NCBI RefSeq assembly: GCF_000027125.1
Contig: NC_017626.1
Source of the DNA: Escherichia coli 042
GTDB taxonomy: Bacteria; Pseudomonadota; Gammaproteobacteria; Enterobacterales; Enterobacteriaceae
DNA: 64,000 nt
Strand: one strand, 5' to 3'
Position numbers and translations under genes: made by a program. Shown here in pieces: positions 31,686-38,658 of the stretch (positions are counted from its first letter, which is position 1; each line of letters opens with the position of its first letter). The notes beneath the pieces are model-generated. The model was given only the letters and a program-made list of their open reading frames with translations, ran no database searches and had not been told where the DNA came from.

Positions 31686-32789
31686 TCAGGAGCCGATATA
31701 TTCTGGTTTCATATCTGTCAGTGTCGTTTTATACGCCTCATATAATTCACCCAGATGTGGCCGGGCAGCATTCAGCGTATTTTCCAGAGCAGTAAATTTT
31801 TGTTCTGCTTCTGGATCACCTGATGAAGGAAGGTCATTTATCATCTTCTCGATACTGGCAATAGCATTGAGACGGTGATGACGCCGAACCACTTTTCCTT
31901 TAAGCTCGGCAAAGAATTCGCCGATCTGGTTTTTCTGATCCTCTATCTCTTGGCGTAATGCAGTGGTTTCCTCAGTCGTGGCCGCGCTTTCGACACGCTG
32001 CCGGAATTCATCAATCCACGCTTCGTCAATACGCTGTTCGATGGTTTCTGTTCGCTGCTCGCTTACCTCGCTATAATTCTGTACCGGCACAGGATTGATG
32101 ATTTTTTCCTGTGGCTCTTCCAGTTCGTCCGGAGTATACACGCCCAGGATGACGTCAGGACAATAAAGGCGAGCCCAGTATTTCAACGCCAGATAGGCGA
32201 GCTGTTGTTTCGGGTTTGAGGTCCATAAAGGAGAATTACGCGTAATCACGCTGGAAAGAAACACCGGTTCTCCCCAGGTAATCTCACTTTCACCGCGAAG
32301 AACTGCACCAACTCGAACTGATAGACCATACTCATCTTCACTGGTCCAACATGGGATCGTTTCTTTTTTCTCATAGATTCCGCCTCCTTTGGCCGTTTTC
32401 TTAACGGTCTCCACTCGGGTGCGAGAGCATTTCTCCCAGTCTCCCTCGTACTTGTAATGGAAGCGGCCTACAATTGCACTTGAGCTAGAGATCACAGCGT
32501 TAACCAGTTGTGCTTCATAACCCAGAACTCCGTTTACCAGGTGTGTTTTCTGAGCCACAGCGTAGGGGTTCATGCCCCATTGCATGGCTTGCATGATGAT
32601 TGCCATGCAGTCGGCAGGATTTCCGCGAAGGTGATCGGGAACTGTGACGGTGGCCTGTGACATCAACCTGGCTACTGCCTGAAGTTGCGTCAACGCCTGA
32701 ACGTTAAAAATAGTGTTACTGGCAGAAATGGTATTTGGTGTCTGCTCTGTCGTGATGATATTGGTATTTTGCATGGTCAGGTTCTCCAT
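31686..32789 (-). CDS. Phage single-strand annealing recombinase in the recT position, divergent from K-12 RecT
   Basis: 367 aa; sits directly downstream of recE-like gene with ATGA overlap; sequence not matching remembered K-12 RecT. Confidence 0.55.
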   Translation of the reverse strand: MENLTMQNTNIITTEQTPNTISASNTIFNVQALTQLQAVARLMSQATVTVPDHLRGNPADCMAIIMQAMQWGMNPYAVAQKTHLVNGVLGYEAQLVNAVISSSSAIVGRFHYKYEGDWEKCSRTRVETVKKTAKGGGIYEKKETIPCWTSEDEYGLSVRVGAVLRGESEITWGEPVFLSSVITRNSPLWTSNPKQQLAYLALKYWARLYCPDVILGVYTPDELEEPQEKIINPVPVQNYSEVSEQRTETIEQRIDEAWIDEFRQRVESAATTEETTALRQEIEDQKNQIGEFFAELKGKVVRRHHRLNAIASIEKMINDLPSSGDPEAEQKFTALENTLNAARPHLGELYEAYKTTLTDMKPEYIGS

Positions 32790-35700
32790 TAAGCCAGATG
32801 CAGTGCTTCAAGACGACGAAGATCAAAGTCGTTTAATTCGTCGGTATAACTTTCGGTAATCGGTGCTGGCCAGTTGTTTGTCTCCAGGGCTTCGTTTATC
32901 TGGCGTAGCGTCCGGCGATATTCCTGTCGACCAAGTTCCAGGAGTTCCTGCGAGGCTTCCACGACAGCCACCCAGTGATAGCCAGCATCTTTGTTGACGA
33001 AGATCCAGAAAAATTTTTCCAGGTTTGCCACATCGCAATACATTGCGGCGCTGAGGTGATAATCACGCTCAATAATTTCACGGTGCAGGCGATCTTTAAG
33101 TCGTTCCTGCCGCACATAACCGAGGCTGACTGACTTCACGTCGGCGCAAATGCTTTCGTATGGCAGCCGGATTTCGATATCAGGACGGACCCTGATTTCC
33201 AGCCCGGTTTCTTCATCAAACCCGAAATAGCTGATTTCAGATTTGCGATCCGGGTGGTTGAGTAGCCTTGCCGCATCAGTATTGTTTTGCAGTGCCGCGT
33301 GAATATTTTTTGCCTGTTCATACATATCCGGACTGATAAACGTTTTCCCGGCGTTTTCTTCTTGCTGGCGTTTTTGCCAGTCCTCCAGTGTCACCAGTTC
33401 CGGGCGAATTTTCCGTGCGATTTCGGTTAATTGCTCTTTCGTGCCACTGATGTTGTAAGGCAAAGATTTAGCACGTTCTTTTTTTGCCAGTTCTGGGTCT
33501 ACAGTTTCAATTTGATCCAGAAGTTGCTCCCGTGCTCCACTGGTTTTCAACAGAGGAGGGAGGCTTGCGTTGTATTCTTTAATACAGGCTTTCATTGCTG
33601 ATGCTGTGTGTTTTTCCCCCTCAGGGATACGCCGAAATTCCACCGGAAGCGAACCGTAAAGGATGCCTGTTTCTTCGGCCCCAGCACTTACAGACAGTGG
33701 CTGTATAAGAGTGCTGTTGTAGCTTTCGATCCACTCTTTCATCTGCTCTGGTGTCATCAGTGCTGGCAGACTGGCATTGTGTTTTTTAATGATGGCGATC
33801 AGTTCGTTAGAAGTAGTAACCACATATTCAGGAACCGGTACCGGAATGGCATATTCATCAGCGAATTTATCCGTTTCCAGAACATAGCTGTGAATGATCC
33901 TCCCACGCAGCAGTGCATCACTTTCCTCATTCGGAATAGTTCCGGCAATGTGCCGCCCGTGGTAATACATCAGGCTGATACGGGCATCCTTCAGCATCGT
34001 GCTGCTTATTCCGTTGGCGGAGTGATAAACCTCGTTCGGGAGGTTTTCATAGCGGCCTGGCTCGAAATATGACGGCCACATGATTTCAGTTGCTACAGGA
34101 GCTGACGCTTCACCAGTTTGATCACTGCAATCACGATGCGGATCGCTGCCAGCATTCTCATTGTGCGGATGTTCAGCGCCTTCCATTTCCACCGGATCTT
34201 TTTCCTTAGCTTCAACCTGATTCTCTTCATCGAATGTTTCCTGGTATGTTGCGTCGCCCATCACCGCGCCACAGTCAGGGCAGTTACTGCCGCCGGTCTG
34301 ACCGCAGGCGGCGCAGACTTTTTCCGGTTCCTGTTGCGCTTCTGGTTCATTTTGTCGCGAATTTTGGCCGTTTTGTTCCGATTTTCGGTCGTTCTGTTCC
34401 GTTTTTGGCTGATGCTGGTACACAGAATCGCGGGTCTGGATCCCCTTAACCCATTTCGGATCATTCGGGTCGCTAATCCCTTCAACAAATTCTCCGCGAT
34501 AGGCAGCCAGTAATTTGTCTGCATCAACAGAATTTACCTGTGACTGAGCATCCAGCGGCTGCGTGTCCTGATGATGTTCAGTTGCATCCGGTTCCACTGT
34601 TTCAGCCGTTGCCTGTTCATCTGCCATTGCGCCAGATGGTTGCGGTTTTTCTTCATCATTCTGTTTTCCCTCCTCTGTTACACGCTGCGGCATCGGGGCA
34701 GAGGAGCGACCGCAGGCAATATCCACGATTTCCGGATCAGGGTTGGCATGATCGGTTTCAGTCAGTACTTTGTTCAGATATTCTGTGACGTGCGCGGGGA
34801 TGACCTCGATCCCAATTGGTGCTTCTTTCACGGACGCAACCACGATGGCGCGAGAATAATCCAGCCCGCCAGGCATGGTGATGAATTTGTCGCGGAAAAC
34901 AGAAAAGGGCGGTTTATTTTCAGCGATAATTTCCTCAATGCGTTTAGCGTGTGCCGGATGAAGGTTATAGATGTCCACGTCCATTGAACGGGCCAGTACG
35001 CCAGTGGCTACGTCGCGCGCCAGTGACGTAAGATCGTGGACGAAACCTTCGCCGCGATCGGTGAGGTTCCCGCCGCCAGCATTAGCACCGGAAGCCGTGC
35101 GAGTGATGCGTGAAACACGATTACCCTTCATCCACTCTTTTGTCAGCAGTCCTCGATCGGTGTAGTCAGCGTTCAGGTATACTTCGAAAAAAGCAGTTAA
35201 CAGTCCCAAGTCTGAATTACCAGGATTAGGGAAAACTTTGTCAGTGTCACGAACCAGTTTGTGGAGATCGCGAATTTCCAGCGGGTCGAGCAGGCTGGTT
35301 TTGTGGGAAACAGCCAGGGCAGTAACAGCCGGTAGTTCTTCAGCCCGTGCAATGTGTAATGCCTGGAGTTCGCCGCGTGAAACGTGCGTTACCGGTTTTT
35401 CGCTGCCGTGTTGAGCAAGCCAACGAATGGGCAGTTCCTGGCCAGAAATTGGGAGTAGCATATTCTCCTCAATCTCAGTCATGTCTTCGCCGTTGACGTT
35501 GGTATTGCCTTGATAGTGAGCGTTGTCTGGTGCTGCTCCCGGTTTTAGTTCCCATGTCATGGAGTCTTTGCTGAGTTGATAGCGTTCACTCCAGGTAAAA
35601 TCGATCTCACCTTCAGCGGGCAGGTCATTAACGACAGGAAAATTCGTGGCAACAGCTTTAAAATAGCTGCTCAGTTTTTTACCTGACTTAACGATCTGGT

Positions 35701-35812
35701 AGTCCAGAGTGGCACAGGTCGATTCAAAATCGTCACTTGCCCACAGGACGACGTCAGGTTCACCGGATGATTTTTTCGCTTTCCGTAACAGGAAGAGTGG
35801 TTTTGTGCTCAT
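32789..35812 (-). CDS. recE: RecE-like exonuclease VIII: N-terminal region like K-12 RecE, C-terminal nuclease domain divergent
   Basis: 1007 aa; N-terminus [26 protein letters not shown]... matches remembered RecE; C-terminal third differs. Confidence 0.7.
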
Positions 35813-36263: not shown

Positions 36264-36434
36264 TTAAAGTTCGTGTGCCATCTGGTCTTTTTCGGCACAT
36301 ATTTCGCTACAATATTTTTTCATTTCCGTCGTTGGGATAACTCCACGCATGAAATGAAGTGGTCTTTTAATGCTTTTGCTTTCTTTAACTTCTTTATCGC
36401 AAAGGTGGTAAGCACATTTTATTTTCTTAGTCAT
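36264..36434 (-). CDS. ydaE: Rac prophage small zinc-binding protein YdaE
   Basis: Hand-translated 56 aa [56 protein letters not shown]; below ORF-track size cutoff. Confidence 0.7.
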   Translation of the reverse strand: MTKKIKCAYHLCDKEVKESKSIKRPLHFMRGVIPTTEMKKYCSEICAEKDQMAHEL

Positions 36435-36655
36435 CACCATGACTCCGCCTTTACAGGTAAACCATCACGACCGAGGAAGACTTTAATCATGCAGTCAGTA
36501 ATGCATGTTTTTGTGGTCAGGTTACGAATATAAAGCTTTCGCTTTTTAATATTGTTTGCCGAGGCAATATATGTCCGGCCGTTATGAAGAACATAATCAC
36601 CAGGAGTCACACACTGACGAGGTATTTCATCAGTTCCGAAGTGATGAGCAATCAT
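36434..36655 (-). CDS. kilR: FtsZ inhibitor KilR
   Basis: 73 aa from [35 protein letters not shown]... Confidence 0.8.
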
Positions 36656-37085
36656 AATTATCTCCATTTTCACAAATGAACTTTGTTGATGCGGTGCCTG
36701 GTGCCTCCAGGTGACGTTAACCAGTTAACAATTAACGCCGGATAATCCACCCATAACACTGATGCTTTTAACTGTTCCGCGTGCGCTTAGCCGCATTCAC
36801 CGCATCACAAAATTCACTTTAAAAAGGGCGGACATCAGCCGAACTTCAAGAAAAAACTGATGCCGCCAAGACTACACACAGCAATGTCGTTATTTACAAC
36901 CGGAGGCGCACTCCCACCATTTAAATTTAACAGACAAGACCGACTCTTTATGGATATCGGAAATGCGCCTTCGTGTTGCGCCCAGTTTTATTTCACCACC
37001 TCCGGGCTTCGGTGGTCTCGGCTATACCCCTACAGCGAGAGCTTGTGTTAACATTTCAATACCCTTACAGTTGAGAGTTATTGAT

Positions 37086-37574
37086 ATGTTGGATGTATTT
37101 ACTCCATTGTTGAAACTTTTTGCTAACGAGCCACTCGAAAGACTTATGTATACGATTATCATTTTTGGTCTCACTCTCTGGCTGATACCGAAAGAGTTTA
37201 CTGTCGCATTCAATGCTTATACTGAAATACCTTGGCTCTTTCAGATTATCGTTTTTGCCTTTTCTTTCGTGGTCGCCATTTCCTTCTCAAGATTGCGAGC
37301 ACATATTCAAAAGCATTTTTCATTACTACCAGAGCAACGAGTATTGCTTCGTTTATCTGAGAAAGAAATCGCTGTATTTAAAGATTTCCTTAAAACAGGA
37401 AATCTTATTATCACTTCTCCTTGCCGTAACCCGGTTATGAAAAAATTAGAACGGAAGGGCATCATTCAACATCAGAGTGATAGCGCAAACTGTTCTTATT
37501 ATCTCGTCACCGAAAAATACTCCCATTTTATGAAGTTATTCTGGAACAGCAGGAGTAGACGTTTTAATCGTTAG
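37086..37574 (+). CDS. sieB: Superinfection exclusion protein SieB
   Basis: 162 aa from MLDVFTPLLKLFANEPLERLMYTIIIFGLTLWLIP..., two TM segments. Confidence 0.8.
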   Translation: MLDVFTPLLKLFANEPLERLMYTIIIFGLTLWLIPKEFTVAFNAYTEIPWLFQIIVFAFSFVVAISFSRLRAHIQKHFSLLPEQRVLLRLSEKEIAVFKDFLKTGNLIITSPCRNPVMKKLERKGIIQHQSDSANCSYYLVTEKYSHFMKLFWNSRSRRFNR

Positions 37575-37726
37575 CTTACTGTGTGCTTCTCCAACCATCG
37601 GCGCGCACCAGTTTCGGTTTTAAATGTTTTGCTTTTTGTATACGTCATCGCGGTGAACGTACCGTCCTGGTTGGGAAACACGCCACACACTATGGATTCG
37701 TTGTTGCCGAGGTCGATTTTTTGCAT
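37571..37726 (-). CDS. ydaF: Rac prophage small protein YdaF
   Basis: Hand-translated 51 aa MQKIDLGNNESIVCGVFPNQDGTFTAMTYTKSKTFKTETGARRWLEKHTV; convergent 4-nt overlap with sieB stop. Confidence 0.7.
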   Translation of the reverse strand: MQKIDLGNNESIVCGVFPNQDGTFTAMTYTKSKTFKTETGARRWLEKHTVS

Positions 37727-37737
37727 TTTGGGAACCC

Positions 37738-37872
37738 TCACATCTTGTTGTTACGGATAGAGGCTTCTGCCTGCCAGAGATCCCAGTCGTTGCTGCGTAG
37801 AGCCTGTACAGCCTGGCTGTAAGTGATGCCGCAACAATCCATCAAATACTGAACTACTTCGTAATGCACCAT
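37738..37872 (-). CDS. ydaG: Rac prophage small protein YdaG
   Basis: Hand-translated 44 aa MVHYEVVQYLMDCCGITYSQAVQALRSNDWDLWQAEASIRNNKM. Confidence 0.7.
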   Translation of the reverse strand: MVHYEVVQYLMDCCGITYSQAVQALRSNDWDLWQAEASIRNNKM

Positions 37873-38159
37873 CTTATCTCTCCCCTTAACGCCGGGTGGC
37901 GGAACTAACTGCTGCACTGCAAAATTTGAATCCCGCCGTCATGTTCATACGCCTCGGGCTGGCTACTTAACCCCTGACCACTGCCTGGTAACTCGAAGTA
38001 TTGCCCTGCGTTCTGTGGGGCGGGGTGGGTTGGTAGGTATATGATGTACTTTGTGTTCATTGTTGTAAAGTACTTTAAGTACATTTTGTGTGTAAAAAAA
38101 TGAGATGGGATAAAGTGAAGCACAAACCCGGAGGGGGACGCTACCGGATTTATGCTGGT

Positions 38160-38579
38160 TTAAGAGGCTTTTTGTTTTTTCTTTCGTGCTAACTCTTCGT
38201 AAATTGCATTGTACTTCTGTTTTTTCTCCTCAAGAGTTTTTAAAAGTTCATCTGTCTCACTGTCAGGGAGCTCGTCCAGAAGGTCAATGATGATTTTTTG
38301 TCTTGGATTTAACTCCTGATAGAAACGTACCTGTCCACTTTCTTCTGTATCCTCTCCCAAAAGATAGGTTGGTGTTGTTCCAATGAGTGTTGCTAATTCC
38401 CTTAATTTCTCTCGGCGAGGAATTGTTTCGCCATTAAACCATTTGCTAACCGCTTTTGGTGTTAATTTCATTCGACGGGCAATTTCTGCCTGCCTTCCAT
38501 GTTGTTCATAACCAGCGTTTTCACAGGCTAGCGCAAGCCTACTGGCGAACTCTTTACGCGCTTTATCTTCATGAACCAT
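38160..38579 (-). CDS. racR: Prophage repressor RacR (cI-like HTH)
   Basis: 139 aa with HTH (QAEIARRMKLTPKAVSKWFNGETIP); divergent from ydaS. Confidence 0.75.
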   Translation of the reverse strand: MVHEDKARKEFASRLALACENAGYEQHGRQAEIARRMKLTPKAVSKWFNGETIPRREKLRELATLIGTTPTYLLGEDTEESGQVRFYQELNPRQKIIIDLLDELPDSETDELLKTLEEKKQKYNAIYEELARKKKQKAS

Positions 38580-38658
38580 AAGTTCAATGATATTCGCTCT
38601 TGAATGTACTGTCAGTTCTGTTATAGCATGTACTCAAAGTTCACATTGTGAGGGTGAT
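38580..38658. promoter_or_regulatory. Divergent racR / ydaS promoter-operator region
   Basis: 79-bp intergenic spacer between divergently oriented repressor and cro-like gene; operator sites not resolved. Confidence 0.4.

Follow-up and report, generated by a model that had tools for sequence, protein, structure and literature searches.

Three small genes in the Rac early region

Does the minus strand between 36264 and 37872 of the analyzed DNA (the window; 64,000 nucleotides of Escherichia coli 042, contig NC_017626.1) encode the small proteins YdaE, YdaF, and YdaG, although none of them appears in the list of open reading frames (ORFs) supplied with the sequence? A sequence-only reading had recovered them by manual translation and named them after the corresponding genes of the Rac prophage. 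Our analyses indicate that ydaE, ydaF, and ydaG are very probably genuine genes, conserved and encoding small proteins, in the early-left (lambda PL-like) operon of a Rac-type lambdoid prophage of E. coli. All three lie on the minus strand: ydaE at 36264..36434 (56 aa; K-12 b4526, with the RefSeq product name "zinc-binding protein"), ydaF at 37571..37726 (51 aa; a DUF1391 protein, K-12 b4527, paralogue of Qin ydfA), and ydaG at 37738..37872 (44 aa; K-12 b1355). The sizes and strand initially proposed were exact when counted from the conserved ATG starts, and the naming was correct, as RefSeq coding sequences (CDSs) agree in both K-12 MG1655 and NZ_CP196316. In the latter, which is the closest genome (99.3% DNA identity), PGAP calls CDSs at matching coordinates and annotates ydaG as a hypothetical protein.

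Over this span the DNA of the window is ~94.5% identical to K-12, and the alignment with the K-12 proteins, suggested beforehand as a check, gave identities of 41/56 for YdaE, 50/51 for YdaF, and 40/44 for YdaG. At 94.3% identity, three phage records contain 80% or more of the region. Agreement of the PGAP and K-12 CDSs, together with HMM E-values of 9e-25 (YdaE, NCBIfam), 1e-28 (DUF1391), and 2e-37 (PHROG 14709), places the identification far beyond chance. The three genes are already known, being annotated in K-12 and by the NCBI pipeline, and the assignment is a correct but ordinary annotation. Their absence from the ORF list is explained by the size of the ORFs found mechanically on the minus strand (36264-36440, 58 aa; 37571-37741, 56 aa; 37738-37917, 59 aa), all of which are shorter than the 60 aa that the ORF tool requires by default. 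Such a cutoff hides real conserved prophage genes, and the longer antisense ORFs in the same place are noise; the value of this observation is one of quality control only.

Both gene junctions described from the sequence were confirmed. The kilR-ydaE overlap TGATG is present, with the stop/start reading GAGTCATGGTGATGACT and the A at 36434 common to TGA and ATG. At the convergent junction, sieB and ydaF overlap by 4 nt (37571-37574), with the sieB TAG at 37572-37574 and the ydaF TAA at 37573-37571. The upstream neighbor of ydaE, kilR (36434..36655, minus strand, 73 aa), encodes an FtsZ/cell-division inhibitor and matches the profiles NF008465 (161.6 bits) and PHROG 294 (Kil), while sieB (37086..37574, plus strand, 162 aa) encodes a superinfection exclusion protein belonging to Pfam SieB (PF14163; 108 bits vs. 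a gathering threshold of 26). Both neighbors are annotated in NZ_CP196316 and K-12.

Conservation and selection across related haplotypes

We gathered 85 distinct related haplotypes by similarity to YdaE and YdaF and aligned them with MAFFT. In this set, where the presence of YdaE and YdaF is ascertainment-biased and ydaG played no part in the selection of haplotypes, intact frames were found in 84/85 haplotypes for ydaE and 81/85 for ydaG; the 51-aa form of ydaF occurred in 67, a form with an alternative C-terminus in 14, and the gene was truly disrupted in only 2. The sequence-only reading had named a lack of conservation of these frames among related Rac prophages as the outcome that would speak against the genes; the 85 distinct haplotypes do not show it.

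The annotated frames of ydaE, ydaF, and ydaG are under purifying selection. Their dN/dS values over the 85 haplotypes were 0.07 (ydaF), 0.16 (ydaG), and 0.46 (ydaE), next to 0.18 for kilR and 0.26 for sieB. Off-frames gave ratios near or above 1, or contained stops; the exception was the antisense frame whose third positions match those of the sense frame, in which a low ratio was mimicked but stops were present. The lengths of 56, 51, and 44 aa are invariant despite roughly 5-10% nucleotide divergence, which reaches 19% in ydaE (138/171 nucleotides identical between the window and K-12).

Variable sites of ydaF were distributed over the three codon positions as 5/3/18, and those of ydaE were spread evenly (18/19/19). 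This even spread and the weak pooled ratio of ydaE result from the existence of two diverged allele classes, which in the central part of the gene differ at 29% of the non-synonymous sites and keep the same four cysteines. For the cysteine-bearing ends, dN/dS was 0.17 vs. 0.46 for the pooled gene. The YdaE of the window, 41/56 identical to that of K-12, represents the second class.

Ratios as low as those of ydaF and ydaG, lengths held constant through nucleotide divergence, and cysteines retained in both ydaE classes are difficult to reconcile with the view that the three genes are decaying relics of a cryptic prophage, annotated by habit and no longer translated or functional. A well-spaced Shine-Dalgarno motif at each conserved ATG and the occurrence of the genes in phage genome records, and not just in cryptic remnants, argue in the same direction. 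We consider such decay very unlikely, even though Rac is cryptic in K-12, its operon is silent in laboratory conditions, and the searchable literature yielded no ribosome-profiling, proteomic, or other direct protein evidence for YdaE, YdaF, or YdaG. The pooled ydaE ratio and a few nonsense or frameshift alleles (ydaG W30* in 2 of the 85 haplotypes and the two disrupted copies of ydaF) would also fit with it.

Start sites and plus-strand ORFs

The conserved ATGs are preceded by the Shine-Dalgarno-like motifs GGCGGAG (ydaE), GAGGG (ydaF), and GGGGAGAG (ydaG), the last of these ~7 nt before ATG 37872. These motifs bear on whether the real products are instead the longer ORFs, of 58 aa from ATG 36440, 56 aa from GTG 37741, and 59 aa from GTG 37917. 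In the case of ydaE, GGAG lies only 2 nt upstream of ATG 36440, compared with a spacing of 8 nt for 36434. GTG 37741 shares nucleotides with the ydaG stop (GTGA), yet the ydaG-ydaF spacer of K-12 is 1 nt shorter and places the equivalent GTG out of frame with ydaF. Some database entries do contain YdaG forms of 59-68 aa and DUF1391 forms of 65-86 aa, and the extended forms are the longest ORFs there in the window; both PGAP and K-12 curation nevertheless chose the short forms, and the family profiles begin at or near the short-form methionine. The longer products are therefore highly improbable, and we retain the 56-, 51-, and 44-aa proteins.

The plus strand carries an 86-aa ORF (36273..36533, antisense to ydaE/kilR) and a 79-aa ORF (37583..37822, antisense to ydaF/ydaG), and both were rightly suspected to be artefacts. 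Only 33 of the 85 haplotypes keep the former open and only 6 the latter: K-12-type alleles have two in-frame stops in the 86-aa ORF, and a 1-nt indel between ydaG and ydaF interrupts the 79-aa ORF. The substitution ratio in the 86-aa frame over ydaE was 0.71 vs. 0.46 in the sense frame, and that in the 79-aa frame over ydaF was 1.81 vs. 0.07; a family-model search returned no match for either ORF. Thus, although these ORFs exceed the minus-strand genes in length and are uninterrupted in the window, the chance that they are coding, whether in place of the minus-strand genes or in addition to them, is negligible.

Protein families and predicted structures

YdaE is a member of its NCBIfam family (NF041288; 86.5 bits, cutoff 35) and matches PHROG 1520 with an E-value of 1.4e-26; 303 YdaE-encoding stretches were confirmed in IMG/VR. 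The protein contains four cysteines (C7, C12, C42, and C46) with the spacing C-x4-C ... C-x3-C; C12, C42, and C46 occur in all 27 distinct proteins and C7 in 26 of them. We regard YdaE as a putative Cys4 zinc-binding small protein, the zinc being based on the RefSeq product name in K-12 and on the citation of Blindauer et al. (2002). Zinc binding by YdaE is attributed to that study, and in the literature the protein is termed an SmtA-like zinc-binding protein. The cysteine spacing resembles that of Rtr1/RPAP2-type and SmtA-like zinc fingers; in contrast to Rtr1/RPAP2 proteins, YdaE is a stand-alone 56-aa phage protein without phosphatase context. Its resemblance to Pfam RPAP2_Rtr1 (PF04181) was marginal and below the level of membership (32.3 bits, E 1.3e-7, gathering threshold 33). 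The score against prokaryotic metallothionein (PF02069) was 20.1 bits vs. 33, with no stretch passing alone, and a sequence search of the PDB matched designed proteins only, none of them significantly.

YdaF was assigned to Pfam DUF1391 (PF07151) with 99.2 bits vs. a gathering threshold of 27.3, residues 2-48 aligning with positions 1-47 of the 48-position profile, and to PHROG 751 (E 2e-34); 595 encoding stretches were confirmed in IMG/VR. The AF2 model predicts a three-stranded sheet plus a helix (pLDDT 82.5), for which Foldseek gave no PDB match with E < 0.8. Nothing significant was found in the PDB by sequence. The top match there was a phage head decoration protein (E 0.2), a resemblance that probably explains the spurious label "head-DNA stabilization protein D" on ydaF homologues in some phage records. 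The literature searched contained nothing useful on the function of DUF1391.

YdaG matches PHROG 14709 over residues 1-44 (E 2.2e-37) and is similar over its full length to K-12 YdaG, encoded at the matching locus between the repressor gene and ydaF. Its homologues form 18 clusters, all from Escherichia. Three helices are predicted by the AF2 model (pLDDT 73.4), and a three-helix fold was also reported elsewhere (PMC13348028). The score for Pfam UBA_4 (PF14555) was just above gathering (23.4 vs. 21.8 bits), and UBA domains were the top Foldseek matches of the model in the PDB, none of them significant (best E 0.8); the sequence search of the PDB gave no match. As far as a reading of the sequences shows, YdaG is not a homologue of Qin YdfB or YdfC. 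Scanning YdaE, YdaF, and YdaG against PADLOC-DB revealed no defence-system match at E ≤ 0.01.

The sieB cassette, KilS, and the kilR leader

Alignment with strain SK6988, which has no sieB and a ydaF of 50 aa, showed an insertion/deletion polymorphism with approximate boundaries at 37043..37590. The segment carries sieB on the plus strand, and its minus strand supplies the final 6 codons of ydaF. sieB is absent from 14/85 haplotypes, and the alternative YdaF C-terminus (14 haplotypes) is found where the segment is absent or different. This evidence suggests that sieB came in as a cassette whose insertion rewrote the C-terminus of YdaF.

Between sieB and kilR we identified a homologue of the KilS sRNA (36821..36917, minus strand, 97 nt; K-12 ncRNA kilS, b4833), with two differences from K-12 (one substitution and one deleted T). 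Its 3′ end shows a strong predicted terminator hairpin followed by UUUUU, and on the basis of its sequence it appears to be a K-12-type KilS; the K-12 RNA was detected by RIL-seq and northern blot (PMC8175672). A simple terminator scan missed the hairpin because its loop is longer than the scan permits. Against Rfam DicF (RF00039) KilS scored 41.1 bits (E 8.3e-7), below the gathering threshold of 48; the similarity to DicF resides mainly in the terminator hairpin, while the 5′ part differs.

KilS is followed by the conserved 5′ leader of kilR (36641..36824, minus strand), similar to the dicF-dicB spacer of Qin-type prophages. Over the full model length the leader scored 42.6 bits against Rfam STnc100 (RF02076; E 3.8e-7), which is below the gathering threshold of 47. 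A block at about 36675-36831 has matches in 4645 of 5426 E. coli genomes and in several phages. The sequence-only reading covered the span in which KilS, the conserved kilR leader, and the indel polymorphism of sieB are found, but mentioned none of the three.

A proposed leftward operon

A candidate early-left (PL-like) promoter with operator-like repeats is located at 38037..38085 on the minus strand, ~165 nt upstream of ydaG. The promoter candidate itself (38069..38041) consists of a -35 TTTACA, a 17-nt spacer, and a -10 CATCAT, a consensus match of only 9/12, and matches of this kind are not in excess in the region (3 found vs. 4.3 expected in shuffled sequence). The operator-like motif ATGTACT-N5-(A/G)GTTC occurs at 38044-38058 and again, between the repressor gene and cro, at 38604-38618 and 38628-38642; the sequence at 38067-38084 is its inverted partner.

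We propose that a leftward transcript would start at a repressor-controlled promoter (about 38041-38069) upstream of ydaG, read ydaG and ydaF, cross the sieB cassette in antisense, and continue through KilS with its terminator, the leader, kilR, ydaE, and racC into recE. By analogy with K-12, a RacR-type repressor would hold the operon off in the lysogen, with Rho/NusG also holding kilR off, and all operon genes would rise together once the repressor is lost. In K-12, lowered racR expression increased ydaF, ydaG, ydaE, and racC about 40-fold and kilR more than 70-fold, and the silencing of kilR runs through NusG/Rho. Repressor control and co-transcription are carried over here from K-12 and Qin, whose repressors differ from the 139-aa HTH protein of the window.

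Translation of ydaE may occur by termination-reinitiation at the kilR stop within TGATG, and YdaE output would then follow that of KilR. Our best guess is that the three are small proteins with accessory or host-takeover roles that work by binding partners: YdaE would be a Cys4 zinc-finger protein, YdaF a predicted sheet-plus-helix domain retained in the Rac and the Qin module alike, and YdaG a predicted three-helix bundle restricted to Escherichia. Their co-induction with KilR upon loss of the Rac repressor makes them relevant to KilR toxicity, to the OxyS-NusG-KilR checkpoint, and to prophage small proteins in general.

Comparison with Rac of K-12, lambda, and Qin

The locus shares with K-12 Rac the order and strands of ydaE, ydaF, ydaG, kilR, kilS, and sieB, the lengths of 56, 51, and 44 aa, the TGATG overlap, and the 4-nt convergent overlap. 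It differs in the repressor (a 139-aa HTH protein vs. RacR, annotated in K-12 as a 477-nt CDS) and in recE, which encodes 1007 aa with a DUF3799 PDDEXK C-terminal domain in the window.

The PL operon of lambda is a repressed leftward early operon with the order N-ral-sieB-kil-cIII-...-gam-bet-exo. It resembles the Rac operon in having a division inhibitor, a superinfection-exclusion gene, and small accessory proteins followed by recombination genes. Unlike lambda, the window has no N gene and its sieB lies on the opposite strand; the Rac Kil sequence is unrelated to lambda Kil, and YdaE, YdaF, and YdaG have no detectable counterparts in lambda.

Closer parallels are seen with the Qin dicBF operon (ydfA-ydfB-ydfC-dicF-dicB-ydfD), which was demonstrated experimentally to form one polycistronic, repressor-controlled transcript from upstream of ydfA (PMC10448788). 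The Qin-type order of repressor, ydfA (DUF1391), ydfB, ydfC, DicF, and dicB parallels that of the window: in both, the operon lies next to the immunity repressor and includes a DUF1391 gene (ydfA/ydaF), and an sRNA with a DicF-type terminator hairpin is followed by a conserved leader and then a small division inhibitor. However, this inhibitor is KilR in Rac and DicB in Qin, and the antisense sieB cassette is present in Rac. ydaG is unrelated to ydfB/ydfC and precedes the DUF1391 gene, whereas ydfB/ydfC come after it. KilS departs from DicF in its 5′ part and may be transcribed from a promoter of its own. YdaF is the only protein of this toxic operon that Rac and Qin have in common.

Shared DNA blocks and synteny between the Rac and Qin modules are evident. 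That both descend from one ancestral early-left "division-control module" (DUF1391 protein, DicF-type sRNA, conserved structured leader, and small division inhibitor), in which KilR and DicB were swapped and YdaF/YdfA, the hairpin, and the leader were kept, is an idea that we advance only tentatively and consider rather unlikely. Part of the Rac/Qin homology was probably noted in the dicF literature of the 1990s. Were such a module real, one might speculate that producing the sRNA and the toxic inhibitor, or gating them, is a conserved task of the DUF1391 protein and the leader, and that YdaE, coupled to KilR by TGATG, modulates KilR. Any functional partnership between KilR and YdaE is not obligatory, since Shigella phage 75/02 Stx has kil but no ydaE. 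In a Shiga-toxin phage locus, N, kil, and a ydaE-like gene follow each other in that order.

Identification of ydaE, ydaF and ydaG

As shown by the six-frame ORF list, the minus strand contains three short ORFs at 36264-36440 (58 aa), 37571-37741 (56 aa) and 37738-37917 (59 aa), all of them below the 60-aa default cutoff of the ORF tool, which would account for their absence from an ORF track. From conserved ATG codons, each preceded by a Shine-Dalgarno-like motif at sensible spacing, they encode YdaE (36264-36434, minus strand, 56 aa), YdaF (37571-37726, minus strand, 51 aa) and YdaG (37738-37872, minus strand, 44 aa), as the sequence-only reading had proposed. The longer mechanical forms find no support in spacer frame, Shine-Dalgarno spacing or curated annotation. 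The ydaG-ydaF spacer of K-12 is 1 nt shorter than that of the window, so in K-12 the GTG equivalent to 37741 does not share the ydaF frame; GGAG lies only 2 nt from the upstream ydaE ATG at 36440, vs. 8 nt for the ATG at 36434; and the curated annotations (PGAP for NZ_CP196316, and K-12) give the short forms.

The 1609-bp span was matched at least partly by 4645 of 5426 complete E. coli genomes, and over at least 80% of its length in 1365 of the 5426. The top match was NZ_CP196316 (99.3%), with K-12-like strains at about 94.5%. At exactly corresponding coordinates, the PGAP annotation of NZ_CP196316 has CDSs for a "YdaE family protein", kilR, sieB, a "YdaF family protein" and a 44-aa hypothetical protein. 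The K-12 MG1655 annotation has ydaE (b4526, "zinc-binding protein"), kilR, the ncRNA gene kilS (b4833), sieB, ydaF (b4527) and ydaG (b1355), with order and strands unchanged. The encoded proteins share 41/56 (YdaE), 70/73 (KilR), 50/51 (YdaF) and 40/44 (YdaG) residues with their K-12 counterparts. Order, strand and protein identity thus agree with the proposed assignment to Rac ydaE, ydaF and ydaG, and the prophage is Rac-type but distinct from K-12 Rac. YdaE scored 86.5 bits against NCBIfam NF041288 (cutoff 35), YdaF 99.2 bits against Pfam DUF1391 (cutoff 27.3), and YdaE, YdaF and YdaG matched PHROGs 1520, 751 and 14709, respectively (E 1e-26 to 2e-37). Both the earlier observation and its interpretation are correct; the finding is nonetheless ordinary, all three genes and the small RNA KilS being already annotated in K-12. 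The remaining interest lies in what the three proteins do biochemically and in a possible common regulatory logic of the module shared by Rac and Qin.

Conservation of the reading frames

To the 160 IMG/VR loci gathered via YdaE and YdaF we added genome and phage loci, which gave 85 distinct haplotypes spanning the region. Loss of the frames in related Rac prophages, named earlier as counter-evidence, was not seen: ydaE is intact in 84 of 85 (56 aa every time; one has no aligned start) and the 51-aa form of ydaF is present in 67, the presence of these two being biased by the selection, while ydaG, which played no part in it, is intact in 81. Two of the remaining ydaG loci have a stop at W30 and two a different gene in its place. 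For ydaF, 14 haplotypes that lack the sieB cassette or carry a different one have another C-terminus, two have a different gene in place and two are disrupted. Pooled Nei-Gojobori dN/dS in the annotated frames was 0.07 for ydaF, 0.16 for ydaG, 0.18 for kilR, 0.26 for sieB and 0.46 for ydaE. The weak ydaE value reflects two allele classes, K-12-type and window-type. Between them, codons 13-40 differ at about 29% of non-synonymous sites, while the ends that carry the cysteines are conserved (dN/dS 0.17). Three of the four YdaE cysteines are invariant; the fourth, C7, is Tyr in one of the 27 distinct proteins.

The plus-strand ORFs antisense to ydaE/kilR (36273-36533, 86 aa) and ydaF/ydaG (37583-37822, 79 aa) had been considered probable artefacts, and the comparison sustains this. 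The former is open in 33/85 haplotypes, K-12-type alleles having two in-frame stops or a lost stop codon; the latter is open in 6/85, its frame being shifted by the 1-nt indel in the ydaG-ydaF spacer. Pooled Nei-Gojobori substitution ratios in the plus-ORF frames were 1.81 over ydaF and 0.71 over ydaE, and neither ORF matched a family model in Pfam, NCBIfam or PHROGs.

Gene junctions, the sieB cassette and KilS

Both overlaps described earlier are present. The minus strand at the kilR/ydaE junction reads GAGTCATGGTGATGACT, a TGATG overlap in which base 36434 is common to the kilR TGA and the ydaE ATG; this points to coupling of ydaE to kilR by termination-reinitiation. Shigella phage 75/02 Stx, however, has kil without ydaE, and in an Stx1c phage kil has a 4-nt overlap with a ydaE-like gene. 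The sieB TAG (37572-37574) and ydaF TAA (37573-37571) form a convergent 4-nt overlap, which exists because the sieB insertion supplies the final ydaF codons. sieB constitutes an indel cassette, about 548 bp long (roughly 37043-37590), which 14/85 haplotypes and strain SK6988 lack; the antisense strand of the cassette encodes the last 6 codons of ydaF (EKHTVS* vs. AR*), the protein ending in ...RRWLEKHTVS with the cassette and ...RRWLAR without it. The mechanical sieB ORF (36963-37574, plus strand) reaches 203 aa from an upstream ATG. We excluded this extension from the gene since the cassette boundary at about 37043 falls within it; the annotated, conserved start is at 37086 (162 aa).

The earlier inventory of the span was right for the three small genes, but did not include KilS, the kilR leader or the indel-cassette nature of sieB. 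A 97-nt KilS homologue with 2 differences from K-12 kilS lies at 36821-36917 (minus strand). KilS was discovered by RIL-seq, with northern-blot confirmation (PMC8175672), in a paper where DicF goes unmentioned; the terminator hairpin of the homologue (36826-36880) scored 41.1 bits against Rfam DicF, below the gathering score of 48. Read by eye, an apparent extended -10-like TGtTAAATT stands just 5' of the homologue. The kilR 5' leader (36641-36824, minus strand; core approximately 36675-36831) is a conserved block and the most widespread one of the span, matching 4645/5426 E. coli genomes and phages P7 and D6. It scored 42.6 bits against Rfam STnc100 (gathering score 47), and its core matches the dicF-dicB spacer of Qin-type prophages. 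The leader might serve in processing, in Rho utilisation or in the control of translation.

Probable early-left operon and immunity region

The three genes likely belong to a leftward early operon adjoining the immunity region. Qin-type elements have an equivalent order of repressor, ydfA (DUF1391), ydfB, ydfC, DicF, dicB, ydfD and exonuclease, and the Qin operon was shown experimentally to be one DicA-repressed transcript starting upstream of ydfA (PMC10448788). When racR expression is lowered in K-12, ydaF, ydaG, ydaE and racC rise about 40-fold, and for kilR the increase exceeds 70-fold; K-12 kilR is also silenced via NusG/Rho, from which OxyS releases it.

About 165 nt upstream of ydaG we found a sigma-70-like site (38069..38041, minus strand; TTTACA, 17-nt spacer, CATCAT). 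Interleaved with it is an operator-like motif, ATGTACT-N5-(A/G)GTTC, at 38044-38058, with an inverted partner at 38067-38084; two further copies of the motif lie at 38604-38618 and 38628-38642 in the repressor/cro intergenic region. Operator-like repeats with inverted partners occupy 38037-38085, overlapping the promoter-like site, and 38604-38642. Judged by consensus matches, promoter and repeats look like an OL/OR arrangement.

The immunity repressor is a 139-aa HTH_3 protein (38160-38579, minus strand); K-12 racR is annotated as a 477-nt CDS. As the repressor differs from K-12 racR, the immunity region differs from that of K-12 Rac despite common early-left genes. recE (32789-35812, minus strand, 1007 aa) has an Exonuc_VIII N-terminal domain and a DUF3799 PDDEXK-like C-terminal domain, and its nuclease end appears to be a different module from that of K-12 recE (2601-nt CDS, 866 aa).

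Properties of the three proteins

Our best guess is that YdaE, YdaF and YdaG are small partner-binding accessory proteins. YdaE, with cysteines spaced C-x4-C ... C-x3-C, scored 32.3 bits against the Rtr1/RPAP2 zinc finger, near but below the cutoff of 33, and weakly matched a metallothionein model; RefSeq names it zinc-binding, for which a later paper credits Blindauer et al. (2002). The 278 clusters of the YdaF family come from Escherichia, Shigella and Salmonella, and the AF2 model of YdaF has three strands and a C-terminal helix (pLDDT 82.5). For YdaG there are just 18 clusters, all of them in Escherichia; its AF2 model is a three-helix bundle (pLDDT 73), in agreement with the three-helix fold in PMC13348028 and with a marginal UBA_4 match in the Pfam search. 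Foldseek gave no significant PDB structure neighbours for the YdaF and YdaG models, no PDB sequence relatives of the three proteins were found, and none matched PADLOC defence-system models.

The phage records H31, H32, H34, H43, H44 and H49 give ydaF/ydfA homologues the label "head-DNA stabilization protein D", probably in error, as the sole support found is an insignificant similarity to a head decoration protein (E 0.2). In one database entry, protein P0016, YdaG and YdaE are fused in frame; this implies that ydaF-sieB-kilR was deleted in some E. coli strain.
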